A DNA stretch of 64,000 nt from an uncultured Candidatus Saccharibacteria bacterium (GCA_963820105.1 CAWFYI010000003.1:12475-76474); one strand, 5' to 3'; shown: positions 8,840 to 34,418, counted from the stretch's first letter. A program made the numbers and translations. The notes: generated by a model from the sequence alone, not told the origin.

Positions 8840-8856
8840 ACCGGTATTGTATATGC

Positions 8857-11568: not shown

Positions 11569-11607
11569 TTACTTTTCGTACTCTTAATATACGGAATCTA
11601 TCATAAG

Positions 11608-11732: not shown

Positions 11733-11852
11733 CCCTCGACCGAAAGGCGGATAAACATTGTTAAAACCACACGCTGGCGGCCGATGGGTGCAACTCTTTA
11801 CATACAGGGGCAAAACAGCTATAGTCTTACAGATACGAACCGATAGGAATAT

Positions 11853-11990: not shown

Positions 11991-12325
11991 TCGGACGCGC
12001 CCACCGGTTCCATGGACATAATGCGCTTAACGGCGTCTATCGCCGCGGCAGAACTGTCCGCGCCTCTTTAATGAGTCTGCGCATTGCCGCCCGTGATTCT
12101 AAAAAACCTTACCGCGTGGCGGTGGTGGTCAGCCGCAAGGTCAATAAATCGGCGGTGATACGCAACCGTATACGCAGACGCGTCTACGCGGCGGTTAGAA
12201 AGACTGCTACAGAAGTGAATCCGGGGACCGATCTGGTCTTCACCGTCTTCAGCGACAAGGTGAGGGAAGTACCGGCGGATGAACTGCAAGAAATAGTCGC
12301 CGGGCTGCTCGGCAAAGCCGCCTGA
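11987..12325 (+). CDS. rnpA: Ribonuclease P protein component
   Basis: A 112-aa basic protein with [33 protein letters not shown] (the RNR motif region), in the canonical position after rpmH. Confidence 0.85.
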
Positions 12326-12378
12326 TGCCGCTGGGTCCACCGCGGAACATCGGTCAAGCATGATATAGTAATAGGCAA

Positions 12379-13864: not shown

Positions 13865-13907
13865 ATTAGGACGTTTTGCGTACGTTTTGAACGCAAAACG
13901 TCCTAAT
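13865..13907. terminator. Perfect 17-bp-stem hairpin between convergent genes (candidate bidirectional terminator)
   Basis: ATTAGGACGTTTTGCGT (13865-13881) pairs perfectly with ACGCAAAACGTCCTAAT (13891-13907) across a 9-nt loop. The right arm overlaps the stop codon (13903-13905) of the minus-strand glycosyltransferase. There is no long U tract on either side. Confidence 0.55.
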
Positions 13908-16046: not shown

Positions 16047-16973
16047 TTAGCGGTCGCGCCAGTCGGCGATAACGTCTTCCAGGGTAGTTTCCAGAGAGAT
16101 CTGAGGCTTCCAGCCTGTGGCTTCCGTAAGCTTGGAGCTGTCGCCGTAAATCTCGGGCGCATCGGAGGGACGCATCTTCTCCGGGTCTTCCTTGAGCGGC
16201 GCCTTGGATCCGGCGGCCTTGAGCAGGCCTGACACCATATCATGGCCGCTTACGGCCTTGCCGGAGCAGACGTTATAAATTTCGCCGGCCTTGCTCTTTT
16301 CGAGCAGCAGGCGGTAGGCGCGGACGATGTCGCGCACGTCAGTGTAATCACGTTTGGCGTCCAGGTTGCCGACCAGCACCTCGGACTGCTTGCCCTGTTC
16401 GCAAGCGATAATCTGTTGGGCTACATCCGGTATCAAGAAGCCGGGATTCTGGCCAGGGCCGATGTGGTTAAACGGCCGGGCAATAACGCAGGAAAATCCC
16501 CGTAGACCGTAGTGCAGCGCCATCTGCTCCTGGCCGATCTTGCTCACGGCATAAGGCGACCCTGGGAAAACGTCTGATTTTTCAGTCAGGGGCAGGGGGG
16601 ATTTAGCGTCGTACAAGTTGCCGCTGCTGATGACTAGGAACTTAGGCTTGGCGCCCTGGGCGAGCGCGGCCTCGAACAGGTTTATCTCGATACCCACGTT
16701 GGTGGTTATATAAGTCAGAGGGTCGTCAAACGACGGGCCCACTGCAGCCAGCCCTGCCAAGTGTATTACGCCGTCTATGCCGCTAAAATCCAGCTTGGCC
16801 ACGGCTGTGGCATCGTTTAGGTCCAATACCATGTATTCCGAAACGTAAGGCGACTTTTTTTTGGCGCCGGCCGGGCCGCCTACACCGACCACGTTCACGC
16901 CGTTTTCGGACAATTCTTTCACTAAGTGCTGTCCGACGAAGCCATTGGCCCCCGTCACCAGGATTTTCTTCAT
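16047..16973 (-). CDS. NAD-dependent sugar epimerase/reductase; candidate GDP-4-keto-6-deoxy-D-mannose reductase (Rmd-like)
   Basis: Rossmann motif KILVTGANGFVGQHLVKEL and catalytic YxxxK in SPYAVSKIGQE. It is 308 aa and adjacent to gmd. The specific Rmd assignment is inferred from size and context only. Confidence 0.55.
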   Translation of the reverse strand: MKKILVTGANGFVGQHLVKELSENGVNVVGVGGPAGAKKKSPYVSEYMVLDLNDATAVAKLDFSGIDGVIHLAGLAAVGPSFDDPLTYITTNVGIEINLFEAALAQGAKPKFLVISSGNLYDAKSPLPLTEKSDVFPGSPYAVSKIGQEQMALHYGLRGFSCVIARPFNHIGPGQNPGFLIPDVAQQIIACEQGKQSEVLVGNLDAKRDYTDVRDIVRAYRLLLEKSKAGEIYNVCSGKAVSGHDMVSGLLKAAGSKAPLKEDPEKMRPSDAPEIYGDSSKLTEATGWKPQISLETTLEDVIADWRDR

Positions 16974-16983
16974 ACTAAGTAGA

Positions 16984-17706
16984 CTACAGTACTACAGGTT
17001 CCGCGCAAAGCAAGACAGGAAAATTATAGTATGGGTAAGTTTGGTTGGTAATCACGCGGTCCATGACATCGTAAACCATGTCCCTATAAGCCGGGTGATA
17101 CTCGCCCTCGGGAGCTTCCAGTATACTAAACGGATCCTCCCAACGAAGATCGTTATACTCATCGTTCGGTTCAACTCGAGAGTTAAACTCTGGTTCGGAA
17201 ACCGGCATAGCGAATAACGTAACTGCCTGATGAACGCCAGTTACTAACTCTCCCTTTTCATTCCAGCTGGCCGGCTGTTCCCGAGTATCCCATATGACAT
17301 CGTACTGGGTACCTACAGGCTGGAGACGATCCTTGGCCAAGGCGGCAATCTGGTCTCCCAACTCGCGCCCTATATTATGTGTGGCCGTTTCTACGTCCGT
17401 GTCACCAGCATACTTACGTCCGCCGATAACCCAGTCGCCCGGGTGGGGCTCCCGGTCTCTCCGACCGACCAATATACGGCCGGTGTCAGGGTCGTAAATA
17501 ATGACATCACACGTTTTAGCTACTATGCTGCTAAGCGTTTCACTATAAGCTTCCGTGCTGATGAACCGCTGGAATGACGGCCTCGTGCCGTCTTTAGACG
17601 TAACATACTCCCGGACAGTAAGAACGGTACCGGCAACCTGGGTAGGCGCGTAATCTACCGTTTTACCGGTCTGTTCGTCCATAACTCTTTGGCGTTCACC
17701 AGACAT
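16984..17706 (-). CDS. NUDIX-like hydrolase (partly degenerate Nudix box)
   Basis: GDWVIGGRKYAGDTDVETATHNIGRELGDQI fits Ex7RE, but the upstream Gly spacing and the EE pair are off consensus. Its position next to the GDP-sugar genes recalls gmm/wcaH. Confidence 0.5.
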   Translation of the reverse strand: MSGERQRVMDEQTGKTVDYAPTQVAGTVLTVREYVTSKDGTRPSFQRFISTEAYSETLSSIVAKTCDVIIYDPDTGRILVGRRDREPHPGDWVIGGRKYAGDTDVETATHNIGRELGDQIAALAKDRLQPVGTQYDVIWDTREQPASWNEKGELVTGVHQAVTLFAMPVSEPEFNSRVEPNDEYNDLRWEDPFSILEAPEGEYHPAYRDMVYDVMDRVITNQTYPYYNFPVLLCAEPVVL

Positions 17707-17801: not shown

Positions 17802-18614
17802 GTGCGTAAATTCGCCCAACGCTATCGGTACTCTATAATTCTGCTCAGGCAGCTGGTTAAGACCGACTTCAAACTGCGCTACCAAGGTTCGGTGCTGGGC
17901 TACGCTTGGTCGCTGCTACGACCCCTGTTCCTGTTCGTAATCCTGTACATCGTGTTCGGGGTGTTTCTAAAGGCCAAGGGCAACCCGCCGATCCCTCATT
18001 ACCCAGTCTATCTGCTGCTGGGCATTGTGCTGTGGAACTACTTCTCGGAAGTCACGGTGGGCAGTGTGGCGGCCATCGTTGGCAAGGGCGAGCTCCTGCG
18101 CAAGATCAACTTCCCCAAATACGTCATCATCCTGGCCGGCTCGTTCTCCGCGTTTATCAACCTGCTTATTAACTTCGTGGTGATAGCCATATTTATGTAC
18201 TTCGGCCATGTGGCGCTTACGTGGAACGCGCTGATTATGCTGCCGCTCATAGCGGAGCTTTTTATCCTGTCTGTCGCCCTGGCGTTCTTTTTAAGCGCGC
18301 TGTTCGTGAGGTTCCGCGACGTGACTTACATCTGGGAGGTCATCATGCAGGCGGCATTTTATGCCACGCCGATACTATATCCTTTGAGCATCATACCGGA
18401 CAAAGCGGCCAAAGTACTGTTGCTTAATCCAATGGCGCAGATTATCCAGGATGCCAGACATGTGCTGGTCACGCCGGCTTCCCAGACGATCTTTGATTTC
18501 TGGGGCGGCGACTATTTGATATGGGCGATTCCTCTGGGCATGACACTTATTATCGCGGTCCTGGGAGCGGTTTACTTCCGCAGTCAGTCCAAAAACTTCG
18601 CGGAGGAGGTGTAG
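17802..18614 (+). CDS. wzm: ABC-2 type polysaccharide/teichoic-acid export permease (Wzm/TagG-like)
   Basis: 270 aa with six predicted TM helices and a GTG start. Motif LLNPMAQIIQDARHVL. It is followed 1 nt later by the cognate ATPase. Confidence 0.85.
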   Translation: MRKFAQRYRYSIILLRQLVKTDFKLRYQGSVLGYAWSLLRPLFLFVILYIVFGVFLKAKGNPPIPHYPVYLLLGIVLWNYFSEVTVGSVAAIVGKGELLRKINFPKYVIILAGSFSAFINLLINFVVIAIFMYFGHVALTWNALIMLPLIAELFILSVALAFFLSALFVRFRDVTYIWEVIMQAAFYATPILYPLSIIPDKAAKVLLLNPMAQIIQDARHVLVTPASQTIFDFWGGDYLIWAIPLGMTLIIAVLGAVYFRSQSKNFAEEV

Positions 18615-18615: not shown

Positions 18616-19848
18616 ATGCCGGACGAAGTAGTTATCCGCGCGGAAAAGGTCAGCAAGGACTTTGTGTTGCCGCACGAGAAAGTCAACTCGCTCAAAAGCC
18701 TGTTCACGGGCGCGGCCAAACGGCGCGGTCACAGGAAGAGCAAAGAGACCCAGCACGCCCTGCGCGACATCTCGTTCGAAATCAAAAAGGGCGAATTTTT
18801 CGGCATAGTCGGCCGCAACGGCAGCGGCAAGAGCACATTGCTGAAGATTCTGGCCGGAATCTACCAGCCTACGAAAGGCAAGGTCCACACCCGCGGCAAG
18901 CTGGTGCCGTTCATCGAGCTGGGCGTGGGCTTCAACCCGGAACTCACCGGCCGCGAGAACGTCTACCTGAACGGCGCTATGCTTGGCTTCTCGGAGAGGG
19001 AAGTAGAAGAGATGTACGACAGCATCGTGAAATTCGCGGAACTGGAACGCTTCATGGACCAGAAATTGAAGAACTACTCGTCCGGTATGCAGGTACGCCT
19101 GGCGTTTTCCATGGCCATCCGCGCCGAGGCCGACATCCTGCTCATAGACGAAGTCCTCGCCGTCGGCGACGCCGATTTCCAGAGGAAGTGTTATGACTAT
19201 TTTCGTAAACTTAAAAAAGAGAAAAAAACAGTCATCTTCGTAAGCCACGACATGAGCGCAATCAGGGGGTACTGTGACCGCGCGCTCATGATTGAAGACA
19301 GCGAAATCGTTTTCTCAGGAAGCGCTAACGACACCGCAAAAGAGTACACAAAGCTATTCATGCCCGAAGTTTATGCAGCTGATAAAAGGACAGAGCAAAA
19401 AGAAAATGCTAGAAAAACCAAAGCCAAAAAGTGGGGCGCTGGAGGTATAGATATTGTCAACCTCAGCATATCCAAACCAAGGTTTACTCAGAGTGACAAC
19501 GCTATAGAAGTAACCTACCAGATTAAGGCTACAGAAAGCTTCAAGGATGAAATAATCCCTGGGATAACTATAAGGGACGCAAGCGGTGAACCCATTTGCG
19601 GCACAAACACTAAAATAATTCACCCAGAAAAACGCTACTTCATAGGCGGCAACAGTGACAAAGTATTACGCATACGGTGGCATATTCCGAATATATTTAA
19701 CGGAGGTACATATACGATAGAACCTGCCGTACTGTCGGCAACTAATAATGATACATTGCAGTGGTGGGATGAAGCTGCGCGCTTCATTATTGTTAATGAC
19801 GAGAGCACCCCATACCCGGTAGCTCCGCACATCATCGCCGATATTTAG
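18616..19848 (+). CDS. wzt: ABC polysaccharide export ATPase with C-terminal carbohydrate-binding-type extension (Wzt/TagH-like)
   Basis: Walker A is GRNGSGKSTLLKILAG, signature is YSSGMQVRLAFSMA, Walker B is LLIDEVLAVGD. An extra ~150-aa beta-rich C-terminal domain (IDIVNLSI...IEVTYQIKA...GTYTIEPAV) resembles Wzt_C. Confidence 0.88.
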   Translation: MPDEVVIRAEKVSKDFVLPHEKVNSLKSLFTGAAKRRGHRKSKETQHALRDISFEIKKGEFFGIVGRNGSGKSTLLKILAGIYQPTKGKVHTRGKLVPFIELGVGFNPELTGRENVYLNGAMLGFSEREVEEMYDSIVKFAELERFMDQKLKNYSSGMQVRLAFSMAIRAEADILLIDEVLAVGDADFQRKCYDYFRKLKKEKKTVIFVSHDMSAIRGYCDRALMIEDSEIVFSGSANDTAKEYTKLFMPEVYAADKRTEQKENARKTKAKKWGAGGIDIVNLSISKPRFTQSDNAIEVTYQIKATESFKDEIIPGITIRDASGEPICGTNTKIIHPEKRYFIGGNSDKVLRIRWHIPNIFNGGTYTIEPAVLSATNNDTLQWWDEAARFIIVNDESTPYPVAPHIIADI

Positions 19849-21144
19849 TCACCTAGCCGTAATAACATCCATAATGCGGTTAGACGTTTCTTCCCAGGTG
19901 AAATTTGAAGCCTGTTTTTTGCCTAACGAAGCATACTTCTTGCGCAGTTTAGGATTAGACTCTAAGTCTTGTACGAATTTGACTATATCTAGGTAAGAAT
20001 CAGCATAAAGTGCAGCGCTTCCAGCAGCCTCGGCTATGGATGAATTTTTATATGTAATTACGGGCGTGCCATACTGCATCGCCTCCAACACAGGTAGACC
20101 GAAGCCCTCATACCTACTTGGGAACACAAATACCAACGCATTATTGTATAGCCAGTTTCGCTCCTGATCGGACACAAAACCTAAGTAAATTATATCGTCA
20201 GCATAAGAAGAATTTCTAAGAGCTAGTTGCGTGTCATGAACCGGAATAGATTCTGGACCACGCATTATATCACCAGCTAGCACTAGTTTAAGTTCATGGC
20301 CTTGCGCCCGCAAGTGATTAAACGCCATGACTAATTCGTCAAGCTTGCGACGATGATCTGCTCCGCCCACGAACAGCAGGAACTTTGTTGCTTCATCCAT
20401 TTTGAATGGGCGCTTCAAATATCCCCATGAAGTATCTATATATCGGTGCATCTCTGTCCTGGCATTGCCGATTGCTTCCTCAGGCCTGTTTACGCCCAGA
20501 GGAATAGTTACTATTTTTCTTCTGGAAGATCTAACGTATTTCAGAAAGTCCTTGCGCGTGGTTTCGGATATGGCTATTACCTTGTCAGACCGCGTGGCGT
20601 TGACGCGCAGTTTATGTATGTAGGACCAGCGGCGCAGAGAACAACGAACTGCGGCTTGGCGGGGCTGGCCACGTGACCTGGAGGTTTTATAATCCCATAG
20701 ATAATCTGAACCTAGTACGTAAGGTATTACGTCGTAGGCTATGAAGACCTTTTTCATACCCCAGCCTTTAGGTACGCCAATCATTTGATCAGTCTGCAGG
20801 AAGACGTCTATGCCTTTGACGTCATGTATCCTTGCATCTCCAAAGTAGAGGTATCGCAAGGACACCAGTTTATTTATAAACTTGACAATGAGGTTAAACT
20901 TACCCGGGAGTACAGGCCCAATTTTCTTCGGGTCTACTAGAGGTCTGACCACATAATTTATGTCGTTCAAATCAAAAAGCTCCAGAGGATCATCACGGTT
21001 CCCCTCTATGTAATAGAAAAAAACAAAGTCATGTTTCTTACGCAGATCGGGCGGGATATTATTTATGAAGTTTATGAGAGTATAGCCTATACCTCGCATA
21101 CGGTGAGAACCTTGCAACGATGACAAATCGAGGCCTATTGTCAT
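19849..21144 (-). CDS. Glycosyltransferase family 4
   Basis: Motif VFPSRYEGFGLPVLEAMQYGTPVITYKNSSIAEA. The preferred start, MTIGLDLSS at 21144, forms an ATGA overlap with the upstream stop. The ORF-track start at 21195 would overlap the upstream gene by 55 nt. Confidence 0.85.
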   Translation of the reverse strand: MTIGLDLSSLQGSHRMRGIGYTLINFINNIPPDLRKKHDFVFFYYIEGNRDDPLELFDLNDINYVVRPLVDPKKIGPVLPGKFNLIVKFINKLVSLRYLYFGDARIHDVKGIDVFLQTDQMIGVPKGWGMKKVFIAYDVIPYVLGSDYLWDYKTSRSRGQPRQAAVRCSLRRWSYIHKLRVNATRSDKVIAISETTRKDFLKYVRSSRRKIVTIPLGVNRPEEAIGNARTEMHRYIDTSWGYLKRPFKMDEATKFLLFVGGADHRRKLDELVMAFNHLRAQGHELKLVLAGDIMRGPESIPVHDTQLALRNSSYADDIIYLGFVSDQERNWLYNNALVFVFPSRYEGFGLPVLEAMQYGTPVITYKNSSIAEAAGSAALYADSYLDIVKFVQDLESNPKLRKKYASLGKKQASNFTWEETSNRIMDVITAR

Positions 21145-22310
21145 GATTTTACCTCTTGTGCCGCATCCATGATTACCTGAGCGCTTCGCTTCCAAGAAAA
21201 CTTTTCGGCCTGCCGCGGACCCTCTTCCAAGACCCTTTCTGAAATTCTTTCTATATTGCCAAGGGCTTCCTTCATGGTGCTTACAAGCAGACCGGGCTTG
21301 TCCACATCTATCAAAGTGCCAGCTGAGCCCACGGCTTCCGGCAGCGAAGAATTATTAGCGGCTATAACGGGCACCCCACATGCCAACGCCTCCAATGGAG
21401 GCATCCCAAATCCCTCGTAGTGGCTTGGGTATACAAGCAAGGAAGCTCCAGAAATAATGGCTGGCTTATCTTTGTCTGCGACATATTTTGACGGCCTAAT
21501 GATTTTGTAGCCTTCATTGACCTTTGAAATTACGTGATTAAATAAAGTTTCCGTCTTCCAGCCGCTCACACCTACTAGCAATAGTGCATATTTGTCCGTT
21601 ATGGTTTTTGGCAGCTCGCAGTACGCATCGACTAAGGCTTGCAAATTTTTACGTGGTTCAAGGTTAGAAAGAGCTAAAATATACTTGCCTCCGACCCCAT
21701 ATTTGTCGTTTATCCTTGCAATTTCTTTGGACGATCTTTTATAGAACAGTCCTGGATCGGCTGCAGGATAAGCTACGCTTACTTTGGACTCAGGCAGTTT
21801 GTAGAAATCTATTATTTCATGCTGGGCACTTCGTGATATAGTAACTATTTTTTTTGATTTACCTACTGATTTGCGAACGGATTTTGAAAGGAAGTTTGCA
21901 TTACCTTCATCTGAGTATTGGCGATGCAACTCAAAGGACAGATCATAAATTACAAGTACAGATTTACTGAATAACAATGGCATACCCACGAAGCGAGGGA
22001 ATATGTACACGCCCCTGCCACACAGCAAGTCGATGGGCGGAAGCTTGCCCCTATGCCACAAGGCTGCCACATAGCGGAATGGCAAAGGAAGTTTTTTACA
22101 TCTTATATGTTTGAATCCAAATTTTTTGAATTTCTTAACGGAATCGCGAGGGATAATGACCACTATCTCTGGAGCTTCAACCCCCTTATATTTGGACTCC
22201 TCTATAATTTCGTCAAAACCTCGCAACATGCCCAATATATACTGGCCGATACCACTAAAATGACCGTCGACCAGACCGAGGCCGTCAATATAAATAGGTT
22301 TTTGCTTCAT
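21141..22310 (-). CDS. Glycosyltransferase family 4
   Basis: Motif VYPSHYEGFGMPPLEALACGVPVIAANNSSLPEA. 389 aa. Confidence 0.85.
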   Translation of the reverse strand: MKQKPIYIDGLGLVDGHFSGIGQYILGMLRGFDEIIEESKYKGVEAPEIVVIIPRDSVKKFKKFGFKHIRCKKLPLPFRYVAALWHRGKLPPIDLLCGRGVYIFPRFVGMPLLFSKSVLVIYDLSFELHRQYSDEGNANFLSKSVRKSVGKSKKIVTISRSAQHEIIDFYKLPESKVSVAYPAADPGLFYKRSSKEIARINDKYGVGGKYILALSNLEPRKNLQALVDAYCELPKTITDKYALLLVGVSGWKTETLFNHVISKVNEGYKIIRPSKYVADKDKPAIISGASLLVYPSHYEGFGMPPLEALACGVPVIAANNSSLPEAVGSAGTLIDVDKPGLLVSTMKEALGNIERISERVLEEGPRQAEKFSWKRSAQVIMDAAQEVKS

Positions 22311-22355: not shown

Positions 22356-24290
22356 CTAATTCGCTCCGGCTGTCGCAGTATTCCAGTACGGTCGGTTTGC
22401 ATTGTTATACAGCACCAGGTTGCCGTCCTGCTGTATGACCAGCCTAAGGCCAGGATAACCGGCGGTGTGGCTATACCATAGCGGGCGTCCATTATTGTCG
22501 TAGAGTACCAGGTTGCCATCCAATTGCATGGCCAGGAAAGACACTGACTTACCGTCAGTACCGGTTGACCACAACGCATGGGTAGGAGAGTACAAAACCA
22601 GATTACCGTCGGCCTGCATTATCAGATGGAAACGCCGATCAGCAGTATCTATGCTTTGGCCGGGATAGAGACGGGCCGCTGTTGCACCGGGCTTCAGTGA
22701 TGTATTCACGTAGGAAAGATGATCAGGATTATGAACCGTATAGCTTGCCCACAGGGCGGCGTTTGAGCTGCTGTAGACTACCATATTGCCATCTGTTTGC
22801 AGCACAAGCCTTGCACCGGAATTGCCCTCAGTCTGCGTACTCCACAAAGCCACGTTGTTTTGGTTATATAAAACCAAGTTGCCATCAGTCTGCATGACCA
22901 AGCGATTAGCGGAACTCCCCTGCGTCCCGGTTTCCCAAGAGATATTAAAATCTGAATACAGCACCAGATTGCCGTCGCTCTTGATGGTTAGGACAGACTG
23001 AGAGTCCGTTGATAACAATGAACTGCCTTTGTTAAGCGTCTGCCCGGATGTGAGGGTGGAGTTATTACTATTGTTTGCCGATCCTGTACTATTCACGTTC
23101 ACCGTCACGAAAAACCCCAGGTCATTAAGCCAGGTCTGGCCTTCGATTAGCGGATTGAAGTATTCGTTATAGGTGCCAGTAGTGCCGGGGGCCTGCATCT
23201 CAAACTGGAAAGTTCCCACATCTCCGGGAACGACCGAACTCTCGAGCAGCTGAGTCGGCCTGCTGTTGGACAGCCAATTTCCGTCAGCGAAACTGCTGGC
23301 CCGGTCCATCGGGCGCGAGGTGCCTAGATGCATGTTGGACTGGGTCCAAGTCTGGTAGCCTATATTTCTGGCTTTCAGCGTCATGTAAATCTTGCCCCCG
23401 GGCGCGACCGTAGGAGTTGCCGAGAACTGCTGTGTGCGACCGGCATCTGAATAGGCCCACTGGCCTTCATAGGCCCAGGCGTACGGCGTAGAAGTCTGGG
23501 TCGAGCCGAACCACAGCTGGAAGTAGTAAACGAAGTTATAACTGCCCGAATAGCCCGTCTCTGAGTACGGACCAACGTAGGGCGTGTAGCAGTAAAGCGA
23601 TGCTGTGGCGGCATTAGCTATAGTAATCGTCCTTGCCGAGCCACCGGAATTCGTGAAGGTTACCGTGTTGCCCGGGTAAAGCCCTGCCGAATAAAACCCT
23701 GCATGGGCGCTGGAGCAAGGGTAATTGTTGCCCGGGTGCCAGCTTAGCCAATCCGCATGATGAAGAGCGCCTTCGTAGTTATAGCGCAGTATCCAAGTGC
23801 CATTGTCTACTTGGCTGAAGAAACCCACATATCCGCTACAGGAGTTGTAGCCCATAGCGCAGTTTATCTGGGAAGCGGATGGAGAGGGGTCTGTTATAAG
23901 GGACTGTTCCTTTTCCAGCGTAGCGAGGATGCTGCGGGGACTGATTCCGTAAGCCTGCGCGGAGTCGAAGATTATCTGAGCTACCGATATGCGCTGGCCG
24001 CAGTGATGGTAATAGGGCGCAATGGTGGAGTCGCAAGCCTCTACGTCGGAGTAGCCTGCTATTCCGCCGTGCTCGCTGGACAGGAACGCCTGGATCTGAC
24101 TGGCATTCATGGAGCTGGTATTGGTGAACGTGGGATTGTCTATGAGATTGCTGGGGTTGTAACTGGGCGAAAAGGCATGGGCGCGCTGTAGCGGCAGCAT
24201 GATGCTGGCTGCCATCAGCAGAAATACAGACAACACCAGAAATGCAGCATTCTTTTTACTCAAACCGGTCCTAAGTGCTGAAACTAACAT
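22356..24290 (-). CDS. Secreted protein: lysozyme-like N-domain + NBR1-type Ig-like domain + two tandem bulb-type (monocot mannose-binding, MMBL) lectin domains
   Basis: Signal peptide is FLVLSVFLLMAASIMLPLQRAHA. The N-domain has QIIFDSAQAYGISPRSILATLEKEQSL. The Ig-like block is GGKIYMTLKARNIGYQTWTQ...GDVGTFQFEMQAP. Six QxDxNxVxY-type motifs occur in the last 232 aa (nt 22356-23054): KSDGNLVLY, QTDGNLVLY, QTDGNMVVY, QADGNLVLY, QLDGNLVLY, QQDGNLVLY. Confidence 0.8.
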   Translation of the reverse strand: MLVSALRTGLSKKNAAFLVLSVFLLMAASIMLPLQRAHAFSPSYNPSNLIDNPTFTNTSSMNASQIQAFLSSEHGGIAGYSDVEACDSTIAPYYHHCGQRISVAQIIFDSAQAYGISPRSILATLEKEQSLITDPSPSASQINCAMGYNSCSGYVGFFSQVDNGTWILRYNYEGALHHADWLSWHPGNNYPCSSAHAGFYSAGLYPGNTVTFTNSGGSARTITIANAATASLYCYTPYVGPYSETGYSGSYNFVYYFQLWFGSTQTSTPYAWAYEGQWAYSDAGRTQQFSATPTVAPGGKIYMTLKARNIGYQTWTQSNMHLGTSRPMDRASSFADGNWLSNSRPTQLLESSVVPGDVGTFQFEMQAPGTTGTYNEYFNPLIEGQTWLNDLGFFVTVNVNSTGSANNSNNSTLTSGQTLNKGSSLLSTDSQSVLTIKSDGNLVLYSDFNISWETGTQGSSANRLVMQTDGNLVLYNQNNVALWSTQTEGNSGARLVLQTDGNMVVYSSSNAALWASYTVHNPDHLSYVNTSLKPGATAARLYPGQSIDTADRRFHLIMQADGNLVLYSPTHALWSTGTDGKSVSFLAMQLDGNLVLYDNNGRPLWYSHTAGYPGLRLVIQQDGNLVLYNNANRPYWNTATAGAN

Positions 24291-24828
24291 TGATTTCCAC
24301 TATGTCCTCTTCCGCGCCATTACTTGGGTTAGGGTAGTATACCTCTAATTTTCCGCTATTTGAATGCGGGGTGAACTTAAGTATGCCAGAGAATTTTCCA
24401 TCAACTACCTTAAGATTACCTTGAGCTATCAGACCTACCGAGTTGTCCTTAAGGATGAACTGGACGCTGCTGACCTTAGCCAAACCGCTCAGCGTGTCGC
24501 CAGAGCGCACCGTAGTGTTGGGCGAAGGTAGCTGAAGCGTGATGTTGCCGGAAGTTGACAAGACCCACTGGGACGATGGCGGCAGTGTGCCGCTGGTCTT
24601 TCCATTCTGGTCCACCACGCCACCGTCGCGGTTTCCATTCGTGACCGTGGATTCAGGCACCTTGTGCGGCGTAGGCTTGGACGTCGTGCCGGTGACTTTG
24701 CTTTTACTCTTGCTGGCAGCAAGGTTAGGGTTTGAGTTGTGGTTATGATAAATCCAAGCTCCGCCGGCCACCAACACAATCAGTAGGCCTAAGAGAACCT
24801 TCTTGCTTAAAAAACTGCGCTTGCTCAT
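24271..24828 (-). CDS. Small membrane-anchored exoprotein with C-terminal Ig-like (Gmad2-like) domain (hypothetical)
   Basis: N-terminal TM is VLLGLLIVLVAGGAWIY, followed by a Ser/Thr/Lys-rich linker and a beta-rich C-terminus (ITLQLPSPNTTVRSGDTLSGLAK...KLEVYYPNPSNG). It overlaps the lectin gene start by 20 nt on the same strand. Confidence 0.55.
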   Translation of the reverse strand: MSKRSFLSKKVLLGLLIVLVAGGAWIYHNHNSNPNLAASKSKSKVTGTTSKPTPHKVPESTVTNGNRDGGVVDQNGKTSGTLPPSSQWVLSTSGNITLQLPSPNTTVRSGDTLSGLAKVSSVQFILKDNSVGLIAQGNLKVVDGKFSGILKFTPHSNSGKLEVYYPNPSNGAEEDIVEINVSFST

Positions 24829-24981
24829 ATTTTTATTTTATTCCGTCCACACACATAATACCATAAAGTTTAAGAAATTGACAAGCGCACACATCTGTTA
24901 AAAATTGCAAGACAACGTTAAATGAAAGATTGGTCTGTCCATATTTCTTTTCACGCACCGCGGCAGTATAGAATATACGTA

Positions 24982-27111
24982 ATGGATAAATCCAAATATC
25001 GGCCTTCTGTATTGAGGTTTTGGCTCTCCAAGGGCTGGGTGCAGTGGCTTCTGGCGGCCGTATTCTTCTTTTTTGCTTCCTGGTTCTTCATGGGCAGTGC
25101 CATCAATAATTGTTCGACCACCACGACCGCTTTGGGAAGTGATAGCACAGGCGGCTTAGCGTGGATGCAGTGGGCTGGCGGTAACGACCTGAGCTGGGGG
25201 CATACGGACAAAAGCAACTATCCTTACGGGGAAAATCTTAATCAACCGCAGAATATAACCTCAGCCCTGTTAATTTTTATATATAAAGTATTCGCCTCGT
25301 TAACTACACCTATATGCGGGCTCAACCTTTTAGAGCTACTGGGCTACATGTCAACCGGGCTGGTAATGTACGGACTGATCAGATGGTTGCTGAAACGCAA
25401 TGACATCGCGGTGTTCGCGGGGTTTGCCGCCACGTTCGTGCCTTTCCATCTTGTAAATGCCCAAAGTCACATCAATTACATATACGGGAGCACGTTTATA
25501 GGTGTGATATGGGCTTACCTGTGGCTCATAAGCAGGCCTACTTATAAAAGGGCGTTGGTATTAGGCGCGGTCAGCGCGATTGGATTCTACTTTGATGGTT
25601 ATTTTATATTTATCACCGGGGTCCTGCTTGCCGGCCTGTTTGCGTCTTCGTTCATATACGACCTGCTTAGATCGCTACTAGGCCACACCAATTCCGTCGC
25701 CATATGGAGGGAGGCCTTGCACAGAGCCAAGTATCTGGTGGTTGCAGGGCTTTCTTTAGGCTTGCTGCTGGCTCCAATACTAATTACTTACGAAAAGCAC
25801 GGTGCGGCTATAAATTACTCCTTGGCCACCGGCAGAAGTAAGGTAAAATCAGAAACCGAGCTATATGGGGTTAAGCCGATTGAGTTCGTACTCCCCAGCT
25901 ATAACAGCGCGTTGATGCCACCGGGCTACCCCAAATGGCGGGAGACCAAACTGCACGGCTCCAACTTTTCGGAGGCCACCTTATATATAGGTTACACGGT
26001 AATGATCCTGGCACTTATCAGCATCGCCGGCGTTTTTTACTGGAAACACAGACGCACTAAAGCGCAAAACATACCTTACGTTCACCTGGTATTCACGGCC
26101 GCTTTCACTTTCCTTGTTTGCTTGCTACTGTCGCTGCCGGCCGAAGTCACATTGTTTGGCAGACAGTTTCAGACCCCAGTGAACACATTAACTGATCTGA
26201 CGAGCGCATGGCGGACTCTGTCCCGGATGTTCCTGGCAATCGACCCTTTAATGATCGTTTTGGCAAGTTTGGGGCTGTATATTATTACTAAAAACAGGCC
26301 AAAGGCCGTACGCCTTGCCATCGTTATGATTTGCGGTCTATTGCTCTTCTTTGAATATTTACCGTGGCCGCTGCATGCCAATGGCGACCTGTACAAGGAC
26401 GCTCCGTCTACCTATAGACACTTGCGCAGGGATCACAACGTTAAACTAGTAGCTGAGTACCCGTTTGCCAGCTTTGTTGACACCCCGGAAATATTTACCT
26501 ACCAGCCGGTGGACAACAAGACCTTATTGAATGCTAGCACCTCTGTTATTTCGAGAGGTCCTTTCGATGCCAGCATCGCCGGGTTGAACGACCCTCAGAC
26601 CCTGGGTGTGCTGAAGCGCCTAGATGTGGACGTAATATTGGCGCATGGCTTCAGTTCCGACAATCCCGATTTAGTGACTTACTACCAAGCGCACAATACG
26701 CACCCCAACAACAAGACCGTGGCCGCTGACGCGCTGTATTCCTACACCATTCGCGACCCTGTAACGCCTCGAGACGCGTCGTTAATTATTAAGAAAGGTT
26801 ATGAATCGCTATCAGTCGACAACTATCAGATCAGTCATCGTTATGTAACCAATAAGGCGACCATGGGCATAGGCTCGGTAAATTACAGCCCCCTGGCTAA
26901 AAACTATGACGTACGCTTTGAAGTTGCCAGCATCTGTCCGGTTAACGCTCATGTCACAGTCATGCAATTTGGCAAGGTCTTATGGTCCGGCTCGGCCGGG
27001 GAACAACCTGTGCCTATAAATCTGGCTGTGGCCAGTAAAGACTTTTATGTGCAAACCGCTTACTGCTCAATTGGCATCACAAACATGAGTGCAGATCCCC
27101 TATCACCGTAG
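24982..27111 (+). CDS. Large polytopic membrane protein with extracytoplasmic C-terminal domain (GT-C/YfhO-like, putative)
   Basis: There are more than 10 hydrophobic helices in the first ~480 aa, then a ~230-aa soluble C-terminal domain. The preferred start is MDKSKYRPS at 24982 (ORF track gives 24922). The assignment rests on topology and context only. Confidence 0.5.
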   Translation: MDKSKYRPSVLRFWLSKGWVQWLLAAVFFFFASWFFMGSAINNCSTTTTALGSDSTGGLAWMQWAGGNDLSWGHTDKSNYPYGENLNQPQNITSALLIFIYKVFASLTTPICGLNLLELLGYMSTGLVMYGLIRWLLKRNDIAVFAGFAATFVPFHLVNAQSHINYIYGSTFIGVIWAYLWLISRPTYKRALVLGAVSAIGFYFDGYFIFITGVLLAGLFASSFIYDLLRSLLGHTNSVAIWREALHRAKYLVVAGLSLGLLLAPILITYEKHGAAINYSLATGRSKVKSETELYGVKPIEFVLPSYNSALMPPGYPKWRETKLHGSNFSEATLYIGYTVMILALISIAGVFYWKHRRTKAQNIPYVHLVFTAAFTFLVCLLLSLPAEVTLFGRQFQTPVNTLTDLTSAWRTLSRMFLAIDPLMIVLASLGLYIITKNRPKAVRLAIVMICGLLLFFEYLPWPLHANGDLYKDAPSTYRHLRRDHNVKLVAEYPFASFVDTPEIFTYQPVDNKTLLNASTSVISRGPFDASIAGLNDPQTLGVLKRLDVDVILAHGFSSDNPDLVTYYQAHNTHPNNKTVAADALYSYTIRDPVTPRDASLIIKKGYESLSVDNYQISHRYVTNKATMGIGSVNYSPLAKNYDVRFEVASICPVNAHVTVMQFGKVLWSGSAGEQPVPINLAVASKDFYVQTAYCSIGITNMSADPLSP

Positions 27112-27164: not shown

Positions 27165-28286
27165 ATGATTATTGTTATTTATGGCACGACAGGCGAACTT
27201 ATAAAACTTTTGCCTCTGCTCAAGTCTACAGACCCCCGGTCTTACCTCACAATTTGCACCTACCAACAGCCAGAACAACTAAAGGAACTTTTTAAATCCA
27301 CCGGCTTGCCGGCGCCCGATATCAAGATAGGGCAATCCGAAGACGCATCTGACTTAAAAAAATTCAGCTCAATTCCACTATGGTTTTTGCGCGTATGGAT
27401 CGGGTTTTTTAAAAACAGGCGGGCAATTAAGAAAGCAGTAACAGCCGACAGTAAGCACAAAAGTCTGGTTGTGGTGCACGGCGATACTTTCACGACCTTG
27501 TCCGGCTCCATCATGGGCAAACTACTGCGACTGCCGGTAGCTCATGTAGAGGCCGGCTTGCGTAGCCACAATTGGCGCCACCCGTTTCCGGAAGAAATAA
27601 ATCGCATTTGTACCTCTAAAATCGCCCGGCTTCATTTCGCGCCTGGAGACAAACCGGTGGAGAACCTGCGTCGCGAGCATACAAAGGGTCGGATAGTGAA
27701 TACTCGGTACAACACGGTGCTGGACAGTTTAAGATTAGCCAACGATGCCGACAGCGATGCCGAACGCGGACTGCCGAGCAGGTATTGCCTGGTATCCATA
27801 CACCGCAATGAGCTCCTGGCCCAGCCCAAAGAGGTTAAGCAAATATTATCTCGGATACGCACTTTCGCTGACATCATACCCATAGTCTTTGTAGATCACC
27901 CCATTACCAAAGAACGTATACACAGCCTGAGCTTTGACGATATATTAAAATCCGAAAAAATTGTCCGCCTGCCCAAACAAAACTACTTCGACTTCATACG
28001 ACTGCTCGCCAAGGCTGACTGCGTCATAACGGACAGCGGCGGCTTGCAAGAGGAAGCGGCTTACTTGGGCACGCCGTGCCTGGTTCATCGTAAAGCTACC
28101 GAACGCAACGAAGGCCTGGATGCCAACGTGGTTCTTTCGAAGTATGATCCTAAAAGGGTCGAAGCCTTCTGCGCTGGCTATGAAAGTTACAGGAGAAAGG
28201 CTATAGCCGGCAGCATAAGCCCCACCAAAACCGTACTTTCTGAGCTGGAGCGCTTAGGCTATTTGGATTTTTTGGCTACTATGTAG
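27165..28286 (+). CDS. wecB: UDP-N-acetylglucosamine 2-epimerase (non-hydrolysing type)
   Basis: Motifs are VVVHGDTFTTL, VAHVEAGLRSHNWRHPFPEEINR and VITDSGGLQEEAAYLGTPCLV. Confidence 0.85.
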   Translation: MIIVIYGTTGELIKLLPLLKSTDPRSYLTICTYQQPEQLKELFKSTGLPAPDIKIGQSEDASDLKKFSSIPLWFLRVWIGFFKNRRAIKKAVTADSKHKSLVVVHGDTFTTLSGSIMGKLLRLPVAHVEAGLRSHNWRHPFPEEINRICTSKIARLHFAPGDKPVENLRREHTKGRIVNTRYNTVLDSLRLANDADSDAERGLPSRYCLVSIHRNELLAQPKEVKQILSRIRTFADIIPIVFVDHPITKERIHSLSFDDILKSEKIVRLPKQNYFDFIRLLAKADCVITDSGGLQEEAAYLGTPCLVHRKATERNEGLDANVVLSKYDPKRVEAFCAGYESYRRKAIAGSISPTKTVLSELERLGYLDFLATM

Positions 28287-29206
28287 AGCGGACGATTCTG
28301 GGTTTCGTTATGAATACTTTCTGTGTAGAGCGCTAGCAGCCACTGGCAAATCAGCACTAATCCCACTAGAAAGCTCAGGAAGAGCGCCAATATAGCAGTG
28401 CCTGTTATATTTAGATCTAAAGGATCGTTGAACACGTAGTTTTCCAAGAACAAAAATATACCGAGGCAGGCCGACACAATGGTTACGATGAAGCCCAGAA
28501 AGCCGGTGATTTGCAACGGTTTGGTCGATTGCGAGGTAAATGAATGCAGTGCAAGCCTGACCAGCTTTCTAAAATTGTAAGCGGGTTGACCGCTGTGGCG
28601 CTCCGGTGACACAAACCCCACATAAGCCCTTTTAAAGCCTAGCCAATCAATAAGGCCGCGCGTAATCCGACTGCGCTCAGTAAGTTTGTTGAACTCTTCA
28701 ACCACCTTGCGGTCCATAAGCCTGAAGTCAGTAGCGCCCGCAATCGTATCGCCGCTCAAGAAATTCAGGGCTACATAATGCAGCTTGGACCCGTAGCGTT
28801 TTACAAGGCCTTCTTTTTTGTTTTGCTTACGTACGCCCACTACCACGTCAAAACCCTTGCGCCATTCGGCCAAAAAATCCTTTATTACTCCGACGGGATG
28901 TTGCCCGTCGGCATCCATGATGACAACCGCGTCCCCCTTGGCTTGGGCCAAGCCGGCGCTGGTGGCCGCTTCCTTGCCAAAGTTACGAGACAGGCTTATA
29001 TAGTGGACATAAGCATCTTTGGCGACCAGGGACTCTATAATCTTCAAGGAATCGTCATAGCTGCCGTCGTCCACAAAAATAATTTCATAACGAGCAGCAT
29101 TGTGATTTTCGAAAAATTCCTTGATCTTGGAATACAGCCATTCAAGGTTGCTATCTTCGTTATGTACGGGTATGACCAGACTGATCAAGGGCTTTTTAGG
29201 GCGCAT
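28259..29206 (-). CDS. GT2 polyprenyl-phosphate glycosyltransferase (GtrB/CsbB/ArnC architecture)
   Basis: Motifs are SLVIPVHNEDSNL, IFVDDGSYDDS and VIMDADGQHP, plus two C-terminal TM helices. Its 3' end overlaps the wecB 3' end by 28 nt (convergent). Confidence 0.8.
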   Translation of the reverse strand: MRPKKPLISLVIPVHNEDSNLEWLYSKIKEFFENHNAARYEIIFVDDGSYDDSLKIIESLVAKDAYVHYISLSRNFGKEAATSAGLAQAKGDAVVIMDADGQHPVGVIKDFLAEWRKGFDVVVGVRKQNKKEGLVKRYGSKLHYVALNFLSGDTIAGATDFRLMDRKVVEEFNKLTERSRITRGLIDWLGFKRAYVGFVSPERHSGQPAYNFRKLVRLALHSFTSQSTKPLQITGFLGFIVTIVSACLGIFLFLENYVFNDPLDLNITGTAILALFLSFLVGLVLICQWLLALYTESIHNETQNRPLYIVAKKSK

Positions 29207-29247
29207 ATACTAACCTCTTCCTCATGACATGATAGTACATTTCTTAT

Positions 29248-30312
29248 ATGATAGGTAAGATAATGCCCAAAAAACCGACTTCTTTCAACCAGTCGCCGGC
29301 CAGTTTGTCCGTTGTGATTCCTGCTTATAACGCAGCCGCGTGGTTGCCGCTTTCAGTGCCCAAAATCGCCAAAGCAATCAAGGTTGCAGGGATCAGCAAG
29401 GCCGAAATCATTGTGGTTGACGATGGGTCTACTGATGACACTTCCGCGGCGGCCCACTCGCTGAAGCTGGACTACCCTGTGAAGGTAATTTCACAAAAAA
29501 ACGGCGGCCGGTTCCTGGCTCGTTGTGCAGGAGCGGACGCCGCACGTTACGAGTACATACTTTTCATAGACACCAGAGTTTTCATAAACAAGAATTCCCT
29601 TCGCTACATCGCGGAGCAAATGAAATCCAAGCCGGAAGCCTCGGTCTGGAGTAGCCACGTAATAATAGACAAGAGCGGCAATCCTTATGCCAGATTCTGG
29701 GAGGCTGTCACATTCATTTCGTGGAGAAAATATTTCGCTCACCCCCGCGACTGCTCATATGGTATTGCCGAATTTGATCACTATCCAAAGGGCACCACGT
29801 GTTTCTTCGCCCCAAAAAAAATTATCCTTGAGGCTAACGAGTGGTTCAAGCAAAATACGCGCGGCGCCAAAGCCTCCAATGACGATACCCTGCTTATAAG
29901 ACACATAGCCGAGAAGAATCGCATAAACTTGAGCCCGAATTTCTCGTGCACCTACCATGCCCGCTCGGGATTGAACCAATTTTCCAAACACGCTTATCAT
30001 CGAGGTAAAGTCTTCGTGGACGGTTTCCTGCGCCGAGACGGCAATCGGTTCTTTTGGCCGCTGGTGGCGTTTCTGGTGCTGTCGATCATCGTGCCCGTTT
30101 TCCTGATTATATGTACGCAATATATAGGCCCGGCGCTCTTGCTGCTGGCCGCCGCCTGGGCGCTTGAATTTTTAGTGGCTTTGGCTCTGCGGGTTCCGGG
30201 CAAGGATGCACTCAGCCTGTTCGTTCTTAGCCCGCTGTTCGCCGTGGTATACGGCCTAGGAATCTGGGTCGCCGTGTTTGACATCTACGTACGCCGGGCA
30301 CGCCCCGTTTGA
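29248..30312 (+). CDS. GT2 glycosyltransferase with C-terminal TM helices
   Basis: Motifs are SVVIPAYNAAAWL and IVVDDGSTDDT, with hydrophobic C-terminal helices (FWPLVAFLVLSIIVPVFLII...). Confidence 0.75.
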   Translation: MIGKIMPKKPTSFNQSPASLSVVIPAYNAAAWLPLSVPKIAKAIKVAGISKAEIIVVDDGSTDDTSAAAHSLKLDYPVKVISQKNGGRFLARCAGADAARYEYILFIDTRVFINKNSLRYIAEQMKSKPEASVWSSHVIIDKSGNPYARFWEAVTFISWRKYFAHPRDCSYGIAEFDHYPKGTTCFFAPKKIILEANEWFKQNTRGAKASNDDTLLIRHIAEKNRINLSPNFSCTYHARSGLNQFSKHAYHRGKVFVDGFLRRDGNRFFWPLVAFLVLSIIVPVFLIICTQYIGPALLLLAAAWALEFLVALALRVPGKDALSLFVLSPLFAVVYGLGIWVAVFDIYVRRARPV

Positions 30313-31547
30313 AAATAGGGCAATCTGGCCAACAGCCAATAAGCCGCGAAACCTAACAGCAGGGAAGCCCAAAGCAGTCTTATCATCTGGAGCGGCGTGT
30401 CAGCGAAAATTGGAGGCAGGGTAGTACAGCTCAACAGGCTAGAGCCAGCCAGAAGCGCCGCTTTGCGCTGTCTGGTAACCAGCAGATAAAAAGCGTAAAG
30501 GGCCAGAGCCACTAAGGTTAACTGGTACAGAGTTGCGAATATCAGCAGGTTGCCCTGTCCTCCGAAACTGTTTCCAAGCAGAATCTTGGTCAAATAGTTC
30601 CTTAGGACCAGCTCCACTACCACGGCGCCGAAAGTTATGGCTCCAAGTAATTTGTACGCCGTTCCCAAAACGCGCCGGTTAATCGAGGAATCGCCAATCC
30701 TGATTTCAGGCATAACTATCCATATCAGCAGGAAGCCCAGGAAGTAGAGAGCGTTACTTAGCACGCTGATCCCGCTATAAACTCCGGCTTCGCTCGGGCC
30801 GAACAGGATTTTCGCTAATGAGATATCGAAGTTCTGCAGAAAACTTAAAGCACCGACTACCAGTAAGCATTCCAGGAAGTATTTTCTCATATCAAACAGG
30901 AACCTTTTCTCCGCCGGGTCGCTTTTAGAGAAAACTGAAGCCAGACCGGGCAATTTTATACCCCCAGGCGTGAAGCGTACGACCAACAGCCCAACCAGAG
31001 TGCCAGCCAAAAGGCCCAGAAGGCCGCCAGCCGTACCTAAGGCCGCGGCCAATAGGGCGCCGAACACTAGTTTGCCTGCGCTAGCCGATACGTTGAAACT
31101 CCCGACCCTGATCATCTCTTTGTTGCCCTGCAAATAGCCGGTCCAAATGATGCTCGGCACGGACGTCAGCAAGATGAGGCCGAGGATTATGAAATAACCC
31201 GGGTTTTCGATTTTTAACAGATGATTCAGGTAAGGCGAGGCTATCAGGAACAGTACAGTCACAGCCAGGAAGAACAGTATCAGGTTTTTCTGTATGATCT
31301 GGGCGTGGCTTCGGGCCTTTTCCTCGGACTGTGATTTTACAAGGTATATAGAGATGACATTGAATGCCAACAAAAGGCCCAGCAACTGATTGGAAAATGC
31401 TACGATAACGGCGAAATCACCGAACTGCTCGGTAGTTAGGATGCGCGCCAGTACAGGGTATAAGGCGTAGGCTAACAAAGCGCCCGCCAAGGACAAACCG
31501 GTGAACAAACCGGAACGAACATAAAAATTGGGCAACTTGGCTCGCAT
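30285..31547 (-). CDS. wzx: Polysaccharide flippase (Wzx/MOP superfamily)
   Basis: 420 aa with about 12 TM helices and no soluble domain. The N-terminus LFTGLSLAGALLAYALYPVLARILTTEQFGDF is typical of oligosaccharide flippases. It shows a 28-nt convergent overlap with the GT2 gene. Confidence 0.7.
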   Translation of the reverse strand: MRAKLPNFYVRSGLFTGLSLAGALLAYALYPVLARILTTEQFGDFAVIVAFSNQLLGLLLAFNVISIYLVKSQSEEKARSHAQIIQKNLILFFLAVTVLFLIASPYLNHLLKIENPGYFIILGLILLTSVPSIIWTGYLQGNKEMIRVGSFNVSASAGKLVFGALLAAALGTAGGLLGLLAGTLVGLLVVRFTPGGIKLPGLASVFSKSDPAEKRFLFDMRKYFLECLLVVGALSFLQNFDISLAKILFGPSEAGVYSGISVLSNALYFLGFLLIWIVMPEIRIGDSSINRRVLGTAYKLLGAITFGAVVVELVLRNYLTKILLGNSFGGQGNLLIFATLYQLTLVALALYAFYLLVTRQRKAALLAGSSLLSCTTLPPIFADTPLQMIRLLWASLLLGFAAYWLLARLPYFQTGRARRT

Positions 31548-31632
31548 CAGCTATCAATAATAGTTGAGATTAGCCACTGAGCCAAGCTGGAGCCAGTGTG
31601 CCAGCCTGCTTCAAGTAAGCTACAATACGGTG

Positions 31633-32775: not shown

Positions 32776-34418
<1,643 letters not shown>

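Follow-up and report, generated by a model that had tools for sequence, protein, structure and literature searches.

A tandem bulb-lectin protein in a predicted D-rhamnose glycan locus of a Saccharibacterium, and its widespread, putatively wall-lytic N-terminal domain

Tandem bulb lectins of the monocot mannose-binding type (MMBL) are known in bacteria from the lectin-like bacteriocins of Pseudomonas (LlpA, pyocin L1), which are ~250–280 aa long, consist solely of lectin domains with a hairpin or peptide at the C-terminus, and are encoded by sporadic accessory genes (PMC6240691, PMC3916391). The tandem of pyocin L1 binds D-rhamnan, and the Pseudomonas common polysaccharide antigen (CPA) serves as the receptor of MMBL bacteriocins (PMC3916391). 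LlpA kills through loop 6 of BamA in diderm targets, and its sugar motifs are mostly degenerate outside the C-domain (PMC6240691). MMBL domains are also joined to other modules, as in albusin B, a B_lectin–peptidase M15 fusion of Ruminococcus albus, and in a LysM–MMBL lectin of Mycobacterium smegmatis (PMC6240691). A separate precedent is EpaU of Enterococcus faecalis, a GH25 autolysin whose gene is part of the epa rhamnopolysaccharide cluster. Its C-terminal wall-binding domain, which "varies greatly among strains", attaches to the polysaccharide of the strain itself, and efficient peptidoglycan cleavage needs this binding (PMC13343894). Here we describe a gene found in a 64,000-nt stretch of DNA (the window; GCA_963820105.1 CAWFYI010000003.1:12475-76474) of an uncultured Candidatus Saccharibacteria bacterium. 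It encodes a 644-aa secreted protein composed of an N-terminal domain (N-domain), an Ig-like domain and two MMBL domains. The envelopes of Saccharibacteria and other epibionts that belong to the candidate phyla radiation (CPR) remain almost uncharacterised, and how their surfaces are built, remodelled and presented bears directly on host attachment.

We favour, at about an even chance, the reading that the protein is a wall-remodelling hydrolase docked by its lectins on the producer's own D-rhamnose glycan. It would be exported by the Sec pathway, lose its signal peptide and be kept at the wall non-covalently. The two bulb-lectin domains, with six mannose/rhamnose-type sites of which five are canonical, would bind the D-rhamnose-containing glycan of the locus, itself made from GDP-D-rhamnose (Gmd/Rmd), assembled by GT4 glycosyltransferases and exported through Wzm/Wzt. 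Once docked, the N-domain would cleave the glycan strands of peptidoglycan, in wall remodelling, growth or cell separation, with the Ig domain, of the FW type, as a spacer and a membrane-anchored 185-aa protein as a partner that tethers or regulates the enzyme.

Such a protein would resemble EpaU as a secreted wall enzyme of a rhamnose wall-polysaccharide locus, with a conserved N-terminal domain (catalytic in EpaU, putatively so here) and a variable C-terminal binder. The differences are considerable: EpaU has a GH25 domain and a binding module that is not of the MMBL type, whereas our N-domain is unclassified, helical and possibly lysozyme-like; the epa polymer is an L-rhamnan with teichoic-acid-like decorations, whereas ours would derive from GDP-D-rhamnose; and activity and binding have been shown experimentally for EpaU, whereas we infer them here. 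With LlpA and pyocin L1 our protein shares a homologous MMBL tandem, and the genes that make their D-rhamnan ligand are of the same type (gmd, rmd, wzm, wzt, GT4) as those that stand in one block at our locus, as they do in the Pseudomonas CPA cluster. Albusin B and the M. smegmatis lectin likewise fuse an MMBL domain to a wall-directed module in Gram-positive-type bacteria, but their partners are an M15 peptidase and LysM, each has a single lectin domain, and a link to a glycan locus is unreported as far as we checked the literature. MMBL–wall-module fusions and autolysins encoded in polysaccharide loci (EpaU) are thus already known. What is new is the N-domain family, the regularity with which CPR bacteria and Actinomycetes encode it in Wzm/Wzt loci, the MMBL tandem as a presumed wall-polysaccharide anchor in a D-rhamnose locus, and the co-variation of binding module and sugar pathway.

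The lectin protein and its glycan locus

The gene is a 644-aa open reading frame (ORF) on the minus strand at 22356–24290 in the ORF list of the window, exactly where an earlier note on this DNA had placed it, and a database protein (P0001) is 100% identical. A Sec signal peptide, in line with the note's description of the protein as secreted, occupies aa 1–39 (24174–24290): a hydropathy scan showed a hydrophobic core at aa 13–37 followed by AHA|FSP, a signal-peptidase-I-type site, and the orthologue alignment keeps A-x-A and then F/L at this position. Cleavage is predicted after AHA. A scan of the protein sequence found no sortase, wall-sorting or other anchoring motif at the C-terminus, so surface retention would have to come from the lectins or a partner. 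The N-domain spans aa 39–270 (23481–24176) and the Ig-like domain aa 271–405 (23076–23480). An AlphaFold model of aa 39–405 (pLDDT 84.4, pTM 0.81) resolved them into a mostly helical domain and a beta-sandwich.

MMBL domain 1 (aa 406–520; 22731–23075) has its motifs at aa 437, 467 and 498, and MMBL domain 2 (aa 539–644; 22359–22676) at aa 559, 589 and 620. A regular-expression search found the canonical QxDxNxVxY at all but aa 437, where KSDGNLVLY has K for Q, and all six lie within nt 22407–22982. The note's description of two complete domains with nearly all sugar sites intact is therefore borne out. By comparison, just two of 20,000 shuffled versions of the protein contain even one such motif. 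Pfam B_lectin (PF01453) matches in three stretches at 69.2 bits, above its gathering cut-off of 32.4, and scores 47–113 bits across orthologues. In a phmmer search of PDB sequences the top match was the M. smegmatis LysM–MMBL lectin 4oit (1.4e-21, to domain 1), with garlic and snowdrop lectins, putidacin L1 (3m7h; aa 406–636, 8e-19) and pyocin L1/L2 among the others. A beta-prism II fold is implied by this similarity to solved MMBL lectins (E 1e-19 to 1e-21). Among 34 orthologues the three sites of domain 1 are canonical in 23, 34 and 32 sequences and those of domain 2 in 33, 34 and 34, and six regularly spaced Trp, three per domain, are invariant (W452, W483, W514; W574, W605, W636). Since sites 2–6 are canonical in 32–34 of the 34 and these Trp never change, the sugar sites appear to be functional and under purifying selection.

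The Ig-like domain is of the NBR1/ILRUN "FW" type, as had been suggested. Our protein alone reaches 25.2 bits on Pfam N_BRCA1_IG (PF16158), under the cut-off of 28, but all 22 family members match the model (best 2e-8), certain orthologues exceed 28 bits, and this domain gave the top Foldseek match of the two-domain model (4ole, E 6e-6, TMt 0.75), with the ILRUN FW domain 6vhi at TMt 0.78. It also weakly resembles the Wzt carbohydrate-binding domains 5hno and 6o14.

The earlier note had listed, among three possible functions, a lectin-guided antibacterial. Read as an LlpA-type bacteriocin, the protein would be a tandem-MMBL toxin that kills related bacteria after docking on D-rhamnan. The tandem architecture, the resemblance in sequence to putidacin L1 and pyocin L1/L2 (E 1e-16 to 1e-18, phmmer against PDB sequences), a partial match to NCBIfam LLB_putidacin and the fact that D-rhamnose is a known LlpA receptor sugar (PMC3916391) speak for this mechanism, which we nevertheless consider very improbable. 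The LLB_putidacin match (NF033557) comprises four partial stretches that total 183.9 bits, short of the cut-off of 275. A C-terminal extension is absent: just 13–16 residues follow the last lectin motif (16 in our protein), and residues 248–276 of putidacin L1 have no counterpart. The N-terminal enzyme/Ig part of some 400 aa is absent from LlpAs, and the six motif positions of our protein are conserved across its orthologues. Its gene belongs to the conserved core and keeps a fixed synteny, in a monoderm-type lineage, and is not a sporadic accessory gene; a glycan of the receptor type is apparently made by the producer itself. To our knowledge, BamA is not expected in Saccharibacteria or in their monoderm actinobacterial hosts. 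It is on the BamA of diderm cells that LlpAs act (PMC6240691). Judged by sequence, the lectin part is a genuine tandem of MMBL domains, homologous to LlpA yet outside that family.

The gene sits, as the note had recognised, in a block of gmd, rmd, wzm, wzt and GT4 genes. gmd (15023–16039, plus strand) scores 396.6 bits on TIGR01472, slightly under the equivalog cut-off of 415. The neighbouring short-chain dehydrogenase/reductase gene (16047–16973, minus strand), called rmd-like in the note, proved to encode a real Rmd relative, with 6x3b (3.6e-55) and 2pk3 (9.4e-54) as best PDB matches and the next at 8e-38. We also tried Fcl, of the GDP-L-fucose pathway, for this second enzyme and rejected it (67 of 500 bits; best PDB matches Rmd). 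wzm (ABC-2 permease; 17802–18614) and wzt (ATPase plus Wzt_C carbohydrate-binding domain; 18616–19848) follow on the plus strand. Three GT4 genes lie on the minus strand, two of them (21141–22310 and 19849–21195, overlapping each other) directly downstream of the lectin gene, the first starting 46 nt after it, and the third at the far end of the block (13903–14997). Together, gmd, a true Rmd relative and wzm/wzt indicate a locus predicted to encode GDP-D-rhamnose synthesis and the ABC-transporter-dependent export of a putative D-rhamnose glycan.

The two downstream GT4 genes are probably co-transcribed with the lectin gene. In consensus scans no terminator-like site was found on the minus strand from 24828 to 20866, and the best promoter-like site on that strand (24884–24855) lies upstream of the 185-aa partner gene. 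These scans performed no better than on shuffled sequence; they are compatible with one transcription unit and lend an operon weak support only.

Binding modules and sugar pathways across N-domain loci

More than 120 full-length orthologues (40%–85% identity) were found, all in metagenome-assembled genomes (MAGs) of Saccharimonadales/Patescibacteria and all annotated as "hypothetical"; longer relatives carry extra B_lectin domains. For the N-domain, an indexed search gave 2,548 matches and an exhaustive search 4,802 50%-identity cluster representatives at E ≤ 1e-3 and 2,539 at ≤ 1e-30, and GTDB representative genomes hold at least 583 N-domain loci. Its C-terminal partners are DUF5648 (the commonest), ricin-B, FG-GAP/VCBS, LGFP, FIMAH, several folds that have no Pfam model, and SpoIID. 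The SpoIID fusion, a 1,277-aa protein of a Gaiellales MAG (locus L040, 826–4659, plus strand; PF08486 at 1e-10), is encoded at a distance of 127 nt from a wzm-like gene. Wall hydrolases are usually built in this way, from one conserved domain and exchangeable modules that bind carbohydrate or the wall, and the LGFP and SpoIID fusions would point the N-domain to the wall. Three other proteins (P0241, P0242 and P0243; 824–1,116 aa) contain three or four tandem N-domain copies per polypeptide. As far as we checked, the family has no Pfam or NCBIfam model and no paper. The earlier note had not recognised the domain combination as a described family, and in Pfam, NCBIfam and the literature this holds as far as checked; the protein is not an isolated oddity, however, but a member of a large conserved family.

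We looked for linkage of homologues elsewhere to rhamnose/mannose glycan loci, as a test that could count against the note's proposal, and found it. The full block was present in four of the five orthologue loci viewed gene by gene, and the fifth has GT4 and wzt/wzm without gmd/rmd. Three unrelated assemblies (orthologues of 50%–66% identity) keep the order membrane protein, small protein, lectin, GT4, GT4, wzt, wzm, rmd, gmd, GT4; the third GT4 is conserved in L001, L002, L009 and L011 at 51%–66% identity. Elsewhere, N-domain genes with other modules take this place, which lies downstream of the gene for the small protein and within a few kilobases of wzm/wzt, and the sugar genes nearby are other ones: the DUF5648 form lies beside RmlA and an RmlC/RmlD fusion, and the FG-GAP form beside PMM/ManC and a UDP-GlcNAc 2-epimerase.

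The locus sample comprised the best 80 of at least 583 loci, with flanks of ±10 kb. We classified 87 loci by BLAST against reference proteins, a true gmd being called at ≥60% and rmd at ≥50% identity within 10 kb. Among 45 loci, gmd and/or rmd was present in nine of 17 with MMBL modules, compared with one of 28 non-MMBL loci in the same slot (Fisher P = 2e-4), and most MMBL loci that lack such a call have truncated flanks. The reverse was found for rmlA, present in none of the 17 MMBL and 10 of the 28 non-MMBL loci (Fisher P = 0.007).

Locus counts of this kind are confounded by relatedness, and we therefore mapped the traits on an N-domain tree. The combination of MMBL with GMD/RMD appears on three N-domain backbones: the main clade, which includes the window, L001/L020, and L002. 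The nearest relatives of the MMBL backbones are non-MMBL and rml-linked. L001/L020 are closer to L018, a non-MMBL locus linked to rmlA (71% identity), than to the window (59%), and L002 is closer to L004 and L005 (59%–61%) than to any MMBL form (34%–36%), both with bootstrap 1.00; the placement of L006/L023 relative to the ricin, rmlA-linked L019 has moderate support (0.87–0.90). From these placements we conclude that binding module and sugar pathway changed together more than once. A single-clade origin of the association was also considered and, on this simple tree, is rejected for at least two further N-domain backbones.

The N-domain also occurs in cultured Actinomycetes, among them isolates of Trujillonella, Microbacterium, Salinibacterium, Agromyces and Cellulomonas (loci L046, L052, L058, L059, L064, L071, L072, L082 and L083). 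There its gene often adjoins wzm/wzt or rmlA/rmlCD, as in Cellulomonas, where 49 nt separate it from wzt (L071), and in Microbacterium (L052, L059, L072). This placement in free-living bacteria argues for a housekeeping wall role and against an epibiont-specific weapon. Exchange of the family between Saccharibacteria and their host phylum is conceivable, and the isolates are culturable organisms open to functional testing.

The three functions that the earlier note had offered were binding to the cell's own glycan for surface retention, binding to a host-cell glycan, and the bacteriocin mechanism discussed above. Because the C-terminal module co-varies with the nucleotide-sugar genes of its own locus, we favour the first over the second. 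Read as host-directed, the protein would be a weapon or adhesin: the lectins would bind mannose/rhamnose wall glycans of an actinobacterial host, the N-domain would open the host wall for attachment or feeding, and the 185-aa protein would be an anchor or immunity-like. Cultivated Saccharibacteria are all epibionts on Actinobacteria, and soluble rhamnose strongly inhibits host binding by TM7x, for which the responsible lectin has not yet been identified (PMC11623550). Variable binding modules (MMBL, ricin, DUF5648, FG-GAP, LGFP) are moreover typical of host-range determinants, a closely coupled small membrane protein resembles an effector–immunity pair, and the best PDB match of the lectin, 4oit, is itself an actinobacterial MMBL lectin. 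A host-directed protein would not, however, be predicted to change its module with the producer's nucleotide-sugar genes or to be encoded in the wall-glycan loci of free-living Actinomycetes, and our gene is apparently in an operon with biosynthetic GT4 genes. We regard a host-directed function as unlikely.

Fold and putative activity of the N-domain

The note had seen an SLT/lysozyme-like block around LATLEKEQSL, a claim with weaker backing than the rest: no sequence profile supports it, and the fold matches that do, consistently, are below threshold, which leaves it tentative. No Pfam or NCBIfam model matches the N-domain of our protein, 22 and 40 family members gave no significant Pfam match, and profile hidden Markov models of the 22 and of the 40 found no match among all PDB sequences. 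Pfam SLT_4 appeared sporadically (four of 22 and one of 40 members, E ~0.006–0.008). Foldseek searches with the two-domain model were swamped by the Ig domain, so the N-domain was re-modelled alone (AlphaFold; pLDDT 87.5, pTM 0.90). Its PDB neighbours were the GH73 autolysins AtlE, Acp, LytB and SagB, goose-type lysozyme (GEWL), MltC and EtgA, all sub-threshold (E 0.17–5); of the 16 best fold matches, 12 were peptidoglycan hydrolases (AtlE, Acp, LytB, GEWL, SagB). In BFVD the matches were phage tail lysins, GH73 glucosaminidases and SLT/GEWL-like proteins (E 0.04–1.6, probability up to 0.97), and peptidoglycan hydrolases made up most of the named proteins among the best 20. Over the two libraries the TM-scores were just 0.2–0.37. 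The modelled fold thus falls weakly, yet consistently, among lysozyme-like peptidoglycan hydrolases. Tentatively, we consider the N-domain most likely a lysozyme-superfamily glycosidase, and put the chance of this well above even.

A candidate catalytic acid can be named. The 40-sequence alignment of the N-domain covers Saccharibacteria, other CPR lineages, Caldisericaceae and cultured Actinomycetes, and K127, E128, G147, Q160, T229, Y233, Y235, T236, P237 and G249 are invariant in it; K127 and E128 are invariant in the 34-, 22- and 20-sequence alignments as well. Both lie in the LEKEQSL motif (aa 125–131; 23898–23918), and a second signature, YCYTPY (aa 233–238; 23577–23594), contains several of the others. 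Family-wide, the signatures read LQKEQSLxT, AMGYGCPD, ATAxLYxYTP[HY] and GN[YR]NF. In the model of the N-domain, E128 stands at the C-terminal end of helix 80–91, and in lysozyme-like folds the catalytic acid is typically found at a helix end, which makes E128 the candidate. GH73 and GH23 proteins (AtlE, LytB, Acp, FlgJ, MltC, goose-type lysozyme), the nearest if sub-threshold fold neighbours, appear on the model to share with the N-domain a helical fold and an invariant Glu that ends a helix and is preceded by a segment of the type YG-[IV]-x-P-x-x-[IL]-L-A. They differ in that no sequence-profile relationship is detectable, the TM-score is ~0.3, and the N-domain has signatures of its own. An hhalign comparison of the 40-sequence profile with the GH73 domain of Escherichia coli FlgJ, a single sequence as target, was not significant (probability 0.11); its sole segment ends at the Glu of FlgJ LILAQAALE, opposite E128.

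The N-domain stays constant while the sugar chemistry of its loci varies, which suggests that all these loci share its substrate, for which peptidoglycan is the simplest candidate. A non-muralytic role is an alternative: the N-domain might trim, release, organise or scaffold the exported polysaccharide, or the whole might be a purely structural surface protein held by its lectins. In keeping with this, no characterised enzyme matches the N-domain significantly, its association with Wzm/Wzt loci is close and wide in two phyla, and the Ig domain has the weak likeness to Wzt carbohydrate-binding domains mentioned above. We think such a role improbable. That the N-domain is kept while the glycan (D-rhamnose, L-rhamnose, mannose) and the module change fits an invariant substrate such as peptidoglycan better, the fold matches are consistently peptidoglycan hydrolases, a SpoIID fusion exists, and the invariant Glu, Tyr and Thr look catalytic.

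Several points weigh against our favoured reading of a self-docked wall hydrolase. No N-domain fold match is significant (best E 0.04–0.17, TM-score ~0.3–0.37), no sequence profile ties the domain to any glycosidase, and its catalysis is putative. The ligand of the lectins is deduced from genomic association only, and MMBL sites also bind mannose, so that the ligand may contain mannose and belong to self or host. Gene order is generally conserved in Saccharibacteria, which makes synteny weak evidence by itself. Two evaluable MMBL loci (L006, L013) have no gmd/rmd within 10 kb, and a non-MMBL locus (L045) has weak gmd/rmd-like genes. Finally, the tree is a simple neighbour-joining one of 209 columns, and the locus sample is limited as described above.

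Three things emerge from the analysis: a D-rhamnose glycan locus that is conserved, a large enzyme-like family, so far unannotated, that is found in such loci in two phyla, and a testable rule, that the binding module of the enzyme tracks the sugar chemistry of its locus. A more general proposal, which we put forward as speculative and somewhat doubtful, is that the N-domain is an unrecognised glycoside-hydrolase-like family with thousands of members in CPR bacteria and Actinomycetes, standard in Wzm/Wzt wall-glycopolymer loci of monoderm-type bacteria, whose swappable modules (MMBL, ricin-B, DUF5648, FG-GAP, LGFP and several unclassified folds) form a "lectin code" for the cell's own surface glycan. 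Were this so, the surface sugar chemistry of uncultivated epibionts could be predicted from sequence. If the rule is true, the lectin modules would be glycan-specific probes for cells that cannot be cultured alone. The N-domain would, if confirmed, be a new candidate hydrolase family for CAZy-type classification, and the EpaU paradigm of an autolysin encoded in, and docked by, a wall-polysaccharide locus, so far shown in E. faecalis, would extend to CPR bacteria.

Neighbouring genes and other features of the window

The 185-aa partner gene (24271–24828, minus strand) lies directly upstream of the lectin gene, and its stop overlaps the lectin-gene ATG by 20 nt. The protein has an N-terminal membrane anchor, a Ser/Thr/Pro/Lys-rich linker and a beta-rich domain of ~100 aa with a weak match to the Ig-like Gmad2 (0.028). 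In most loci of Saccharibacteria (including L001 and L006–L039), whichever the C-terminal module, a homologue is encoded upstream of the N-domain gene at a distance of 1–28 nt, and the protein probably acts as a partner of the enzyme, as tether, regulator or inhibitor.

Divergently transcribed from it is the gene for a 729-aa membrane protein (24922–27111, plus strand) with at least nine transmembrane helices and an extracytoplasmic C-terminal part of ~245 aa. Neither this protein nor the 185-aa one has a significant Pfam, NCBIfam or PDB sequence match. The protein is conserved at ~710–730 aa in the window, L001 (7171–9303) and L002 (7236–9362). Relatives occupy the same position in L001, L002 and L008 (54%–60% identity by BLAST) and lie 4–6 kb away in L007 and L020 (40%–60%), and a membrane protein of similar size fills that slot in L003 and L006. 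Its topology recalls GT-C-type or polymer-ligase-type enzymes, which is a guess.

Between rmd and wzm lies a gene for a NUDIX protein (16984–17706, minus strand) weakly like GDP-mannose mannosyl hydrolase (Gmm/WcaH), with counterparts in L003 and L016. The G+C content is 44.8% over 20001–22000 (the two GT4 genes downstream of the lectin gene), compared with 49%–58% elsewhere in the window, a dip typical of exchangeable glycan genes. A second glycan cluster (27165–34415) adjoins the D-rhamnose block and comprises a UDP-GlcNAc 2-epimerase, two GT2 enzymes, a Wzx-type flippase (Polysacc_synt), a GT4, a methyltransferase and an epimerase; the genome thus seems to hold a Wzx-dependent pathway beside the Wzm/Wzt one. 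The genes dnaN, dnaA and yidC (7790–13329) are found just upstream of the glycan block, which places the locus beside a probable replication origin, and yidC adjoins the block in L001 too. Farther along, an AdoCbl-II (cobalamin) riboswitch aptamer was found at 48951–49027 on the plus strand (47.5 bits against a gathering cut-off of 36.5, full model covered); such a B12 riboswitch may merit attention, the epibiont genome being a reduced one.

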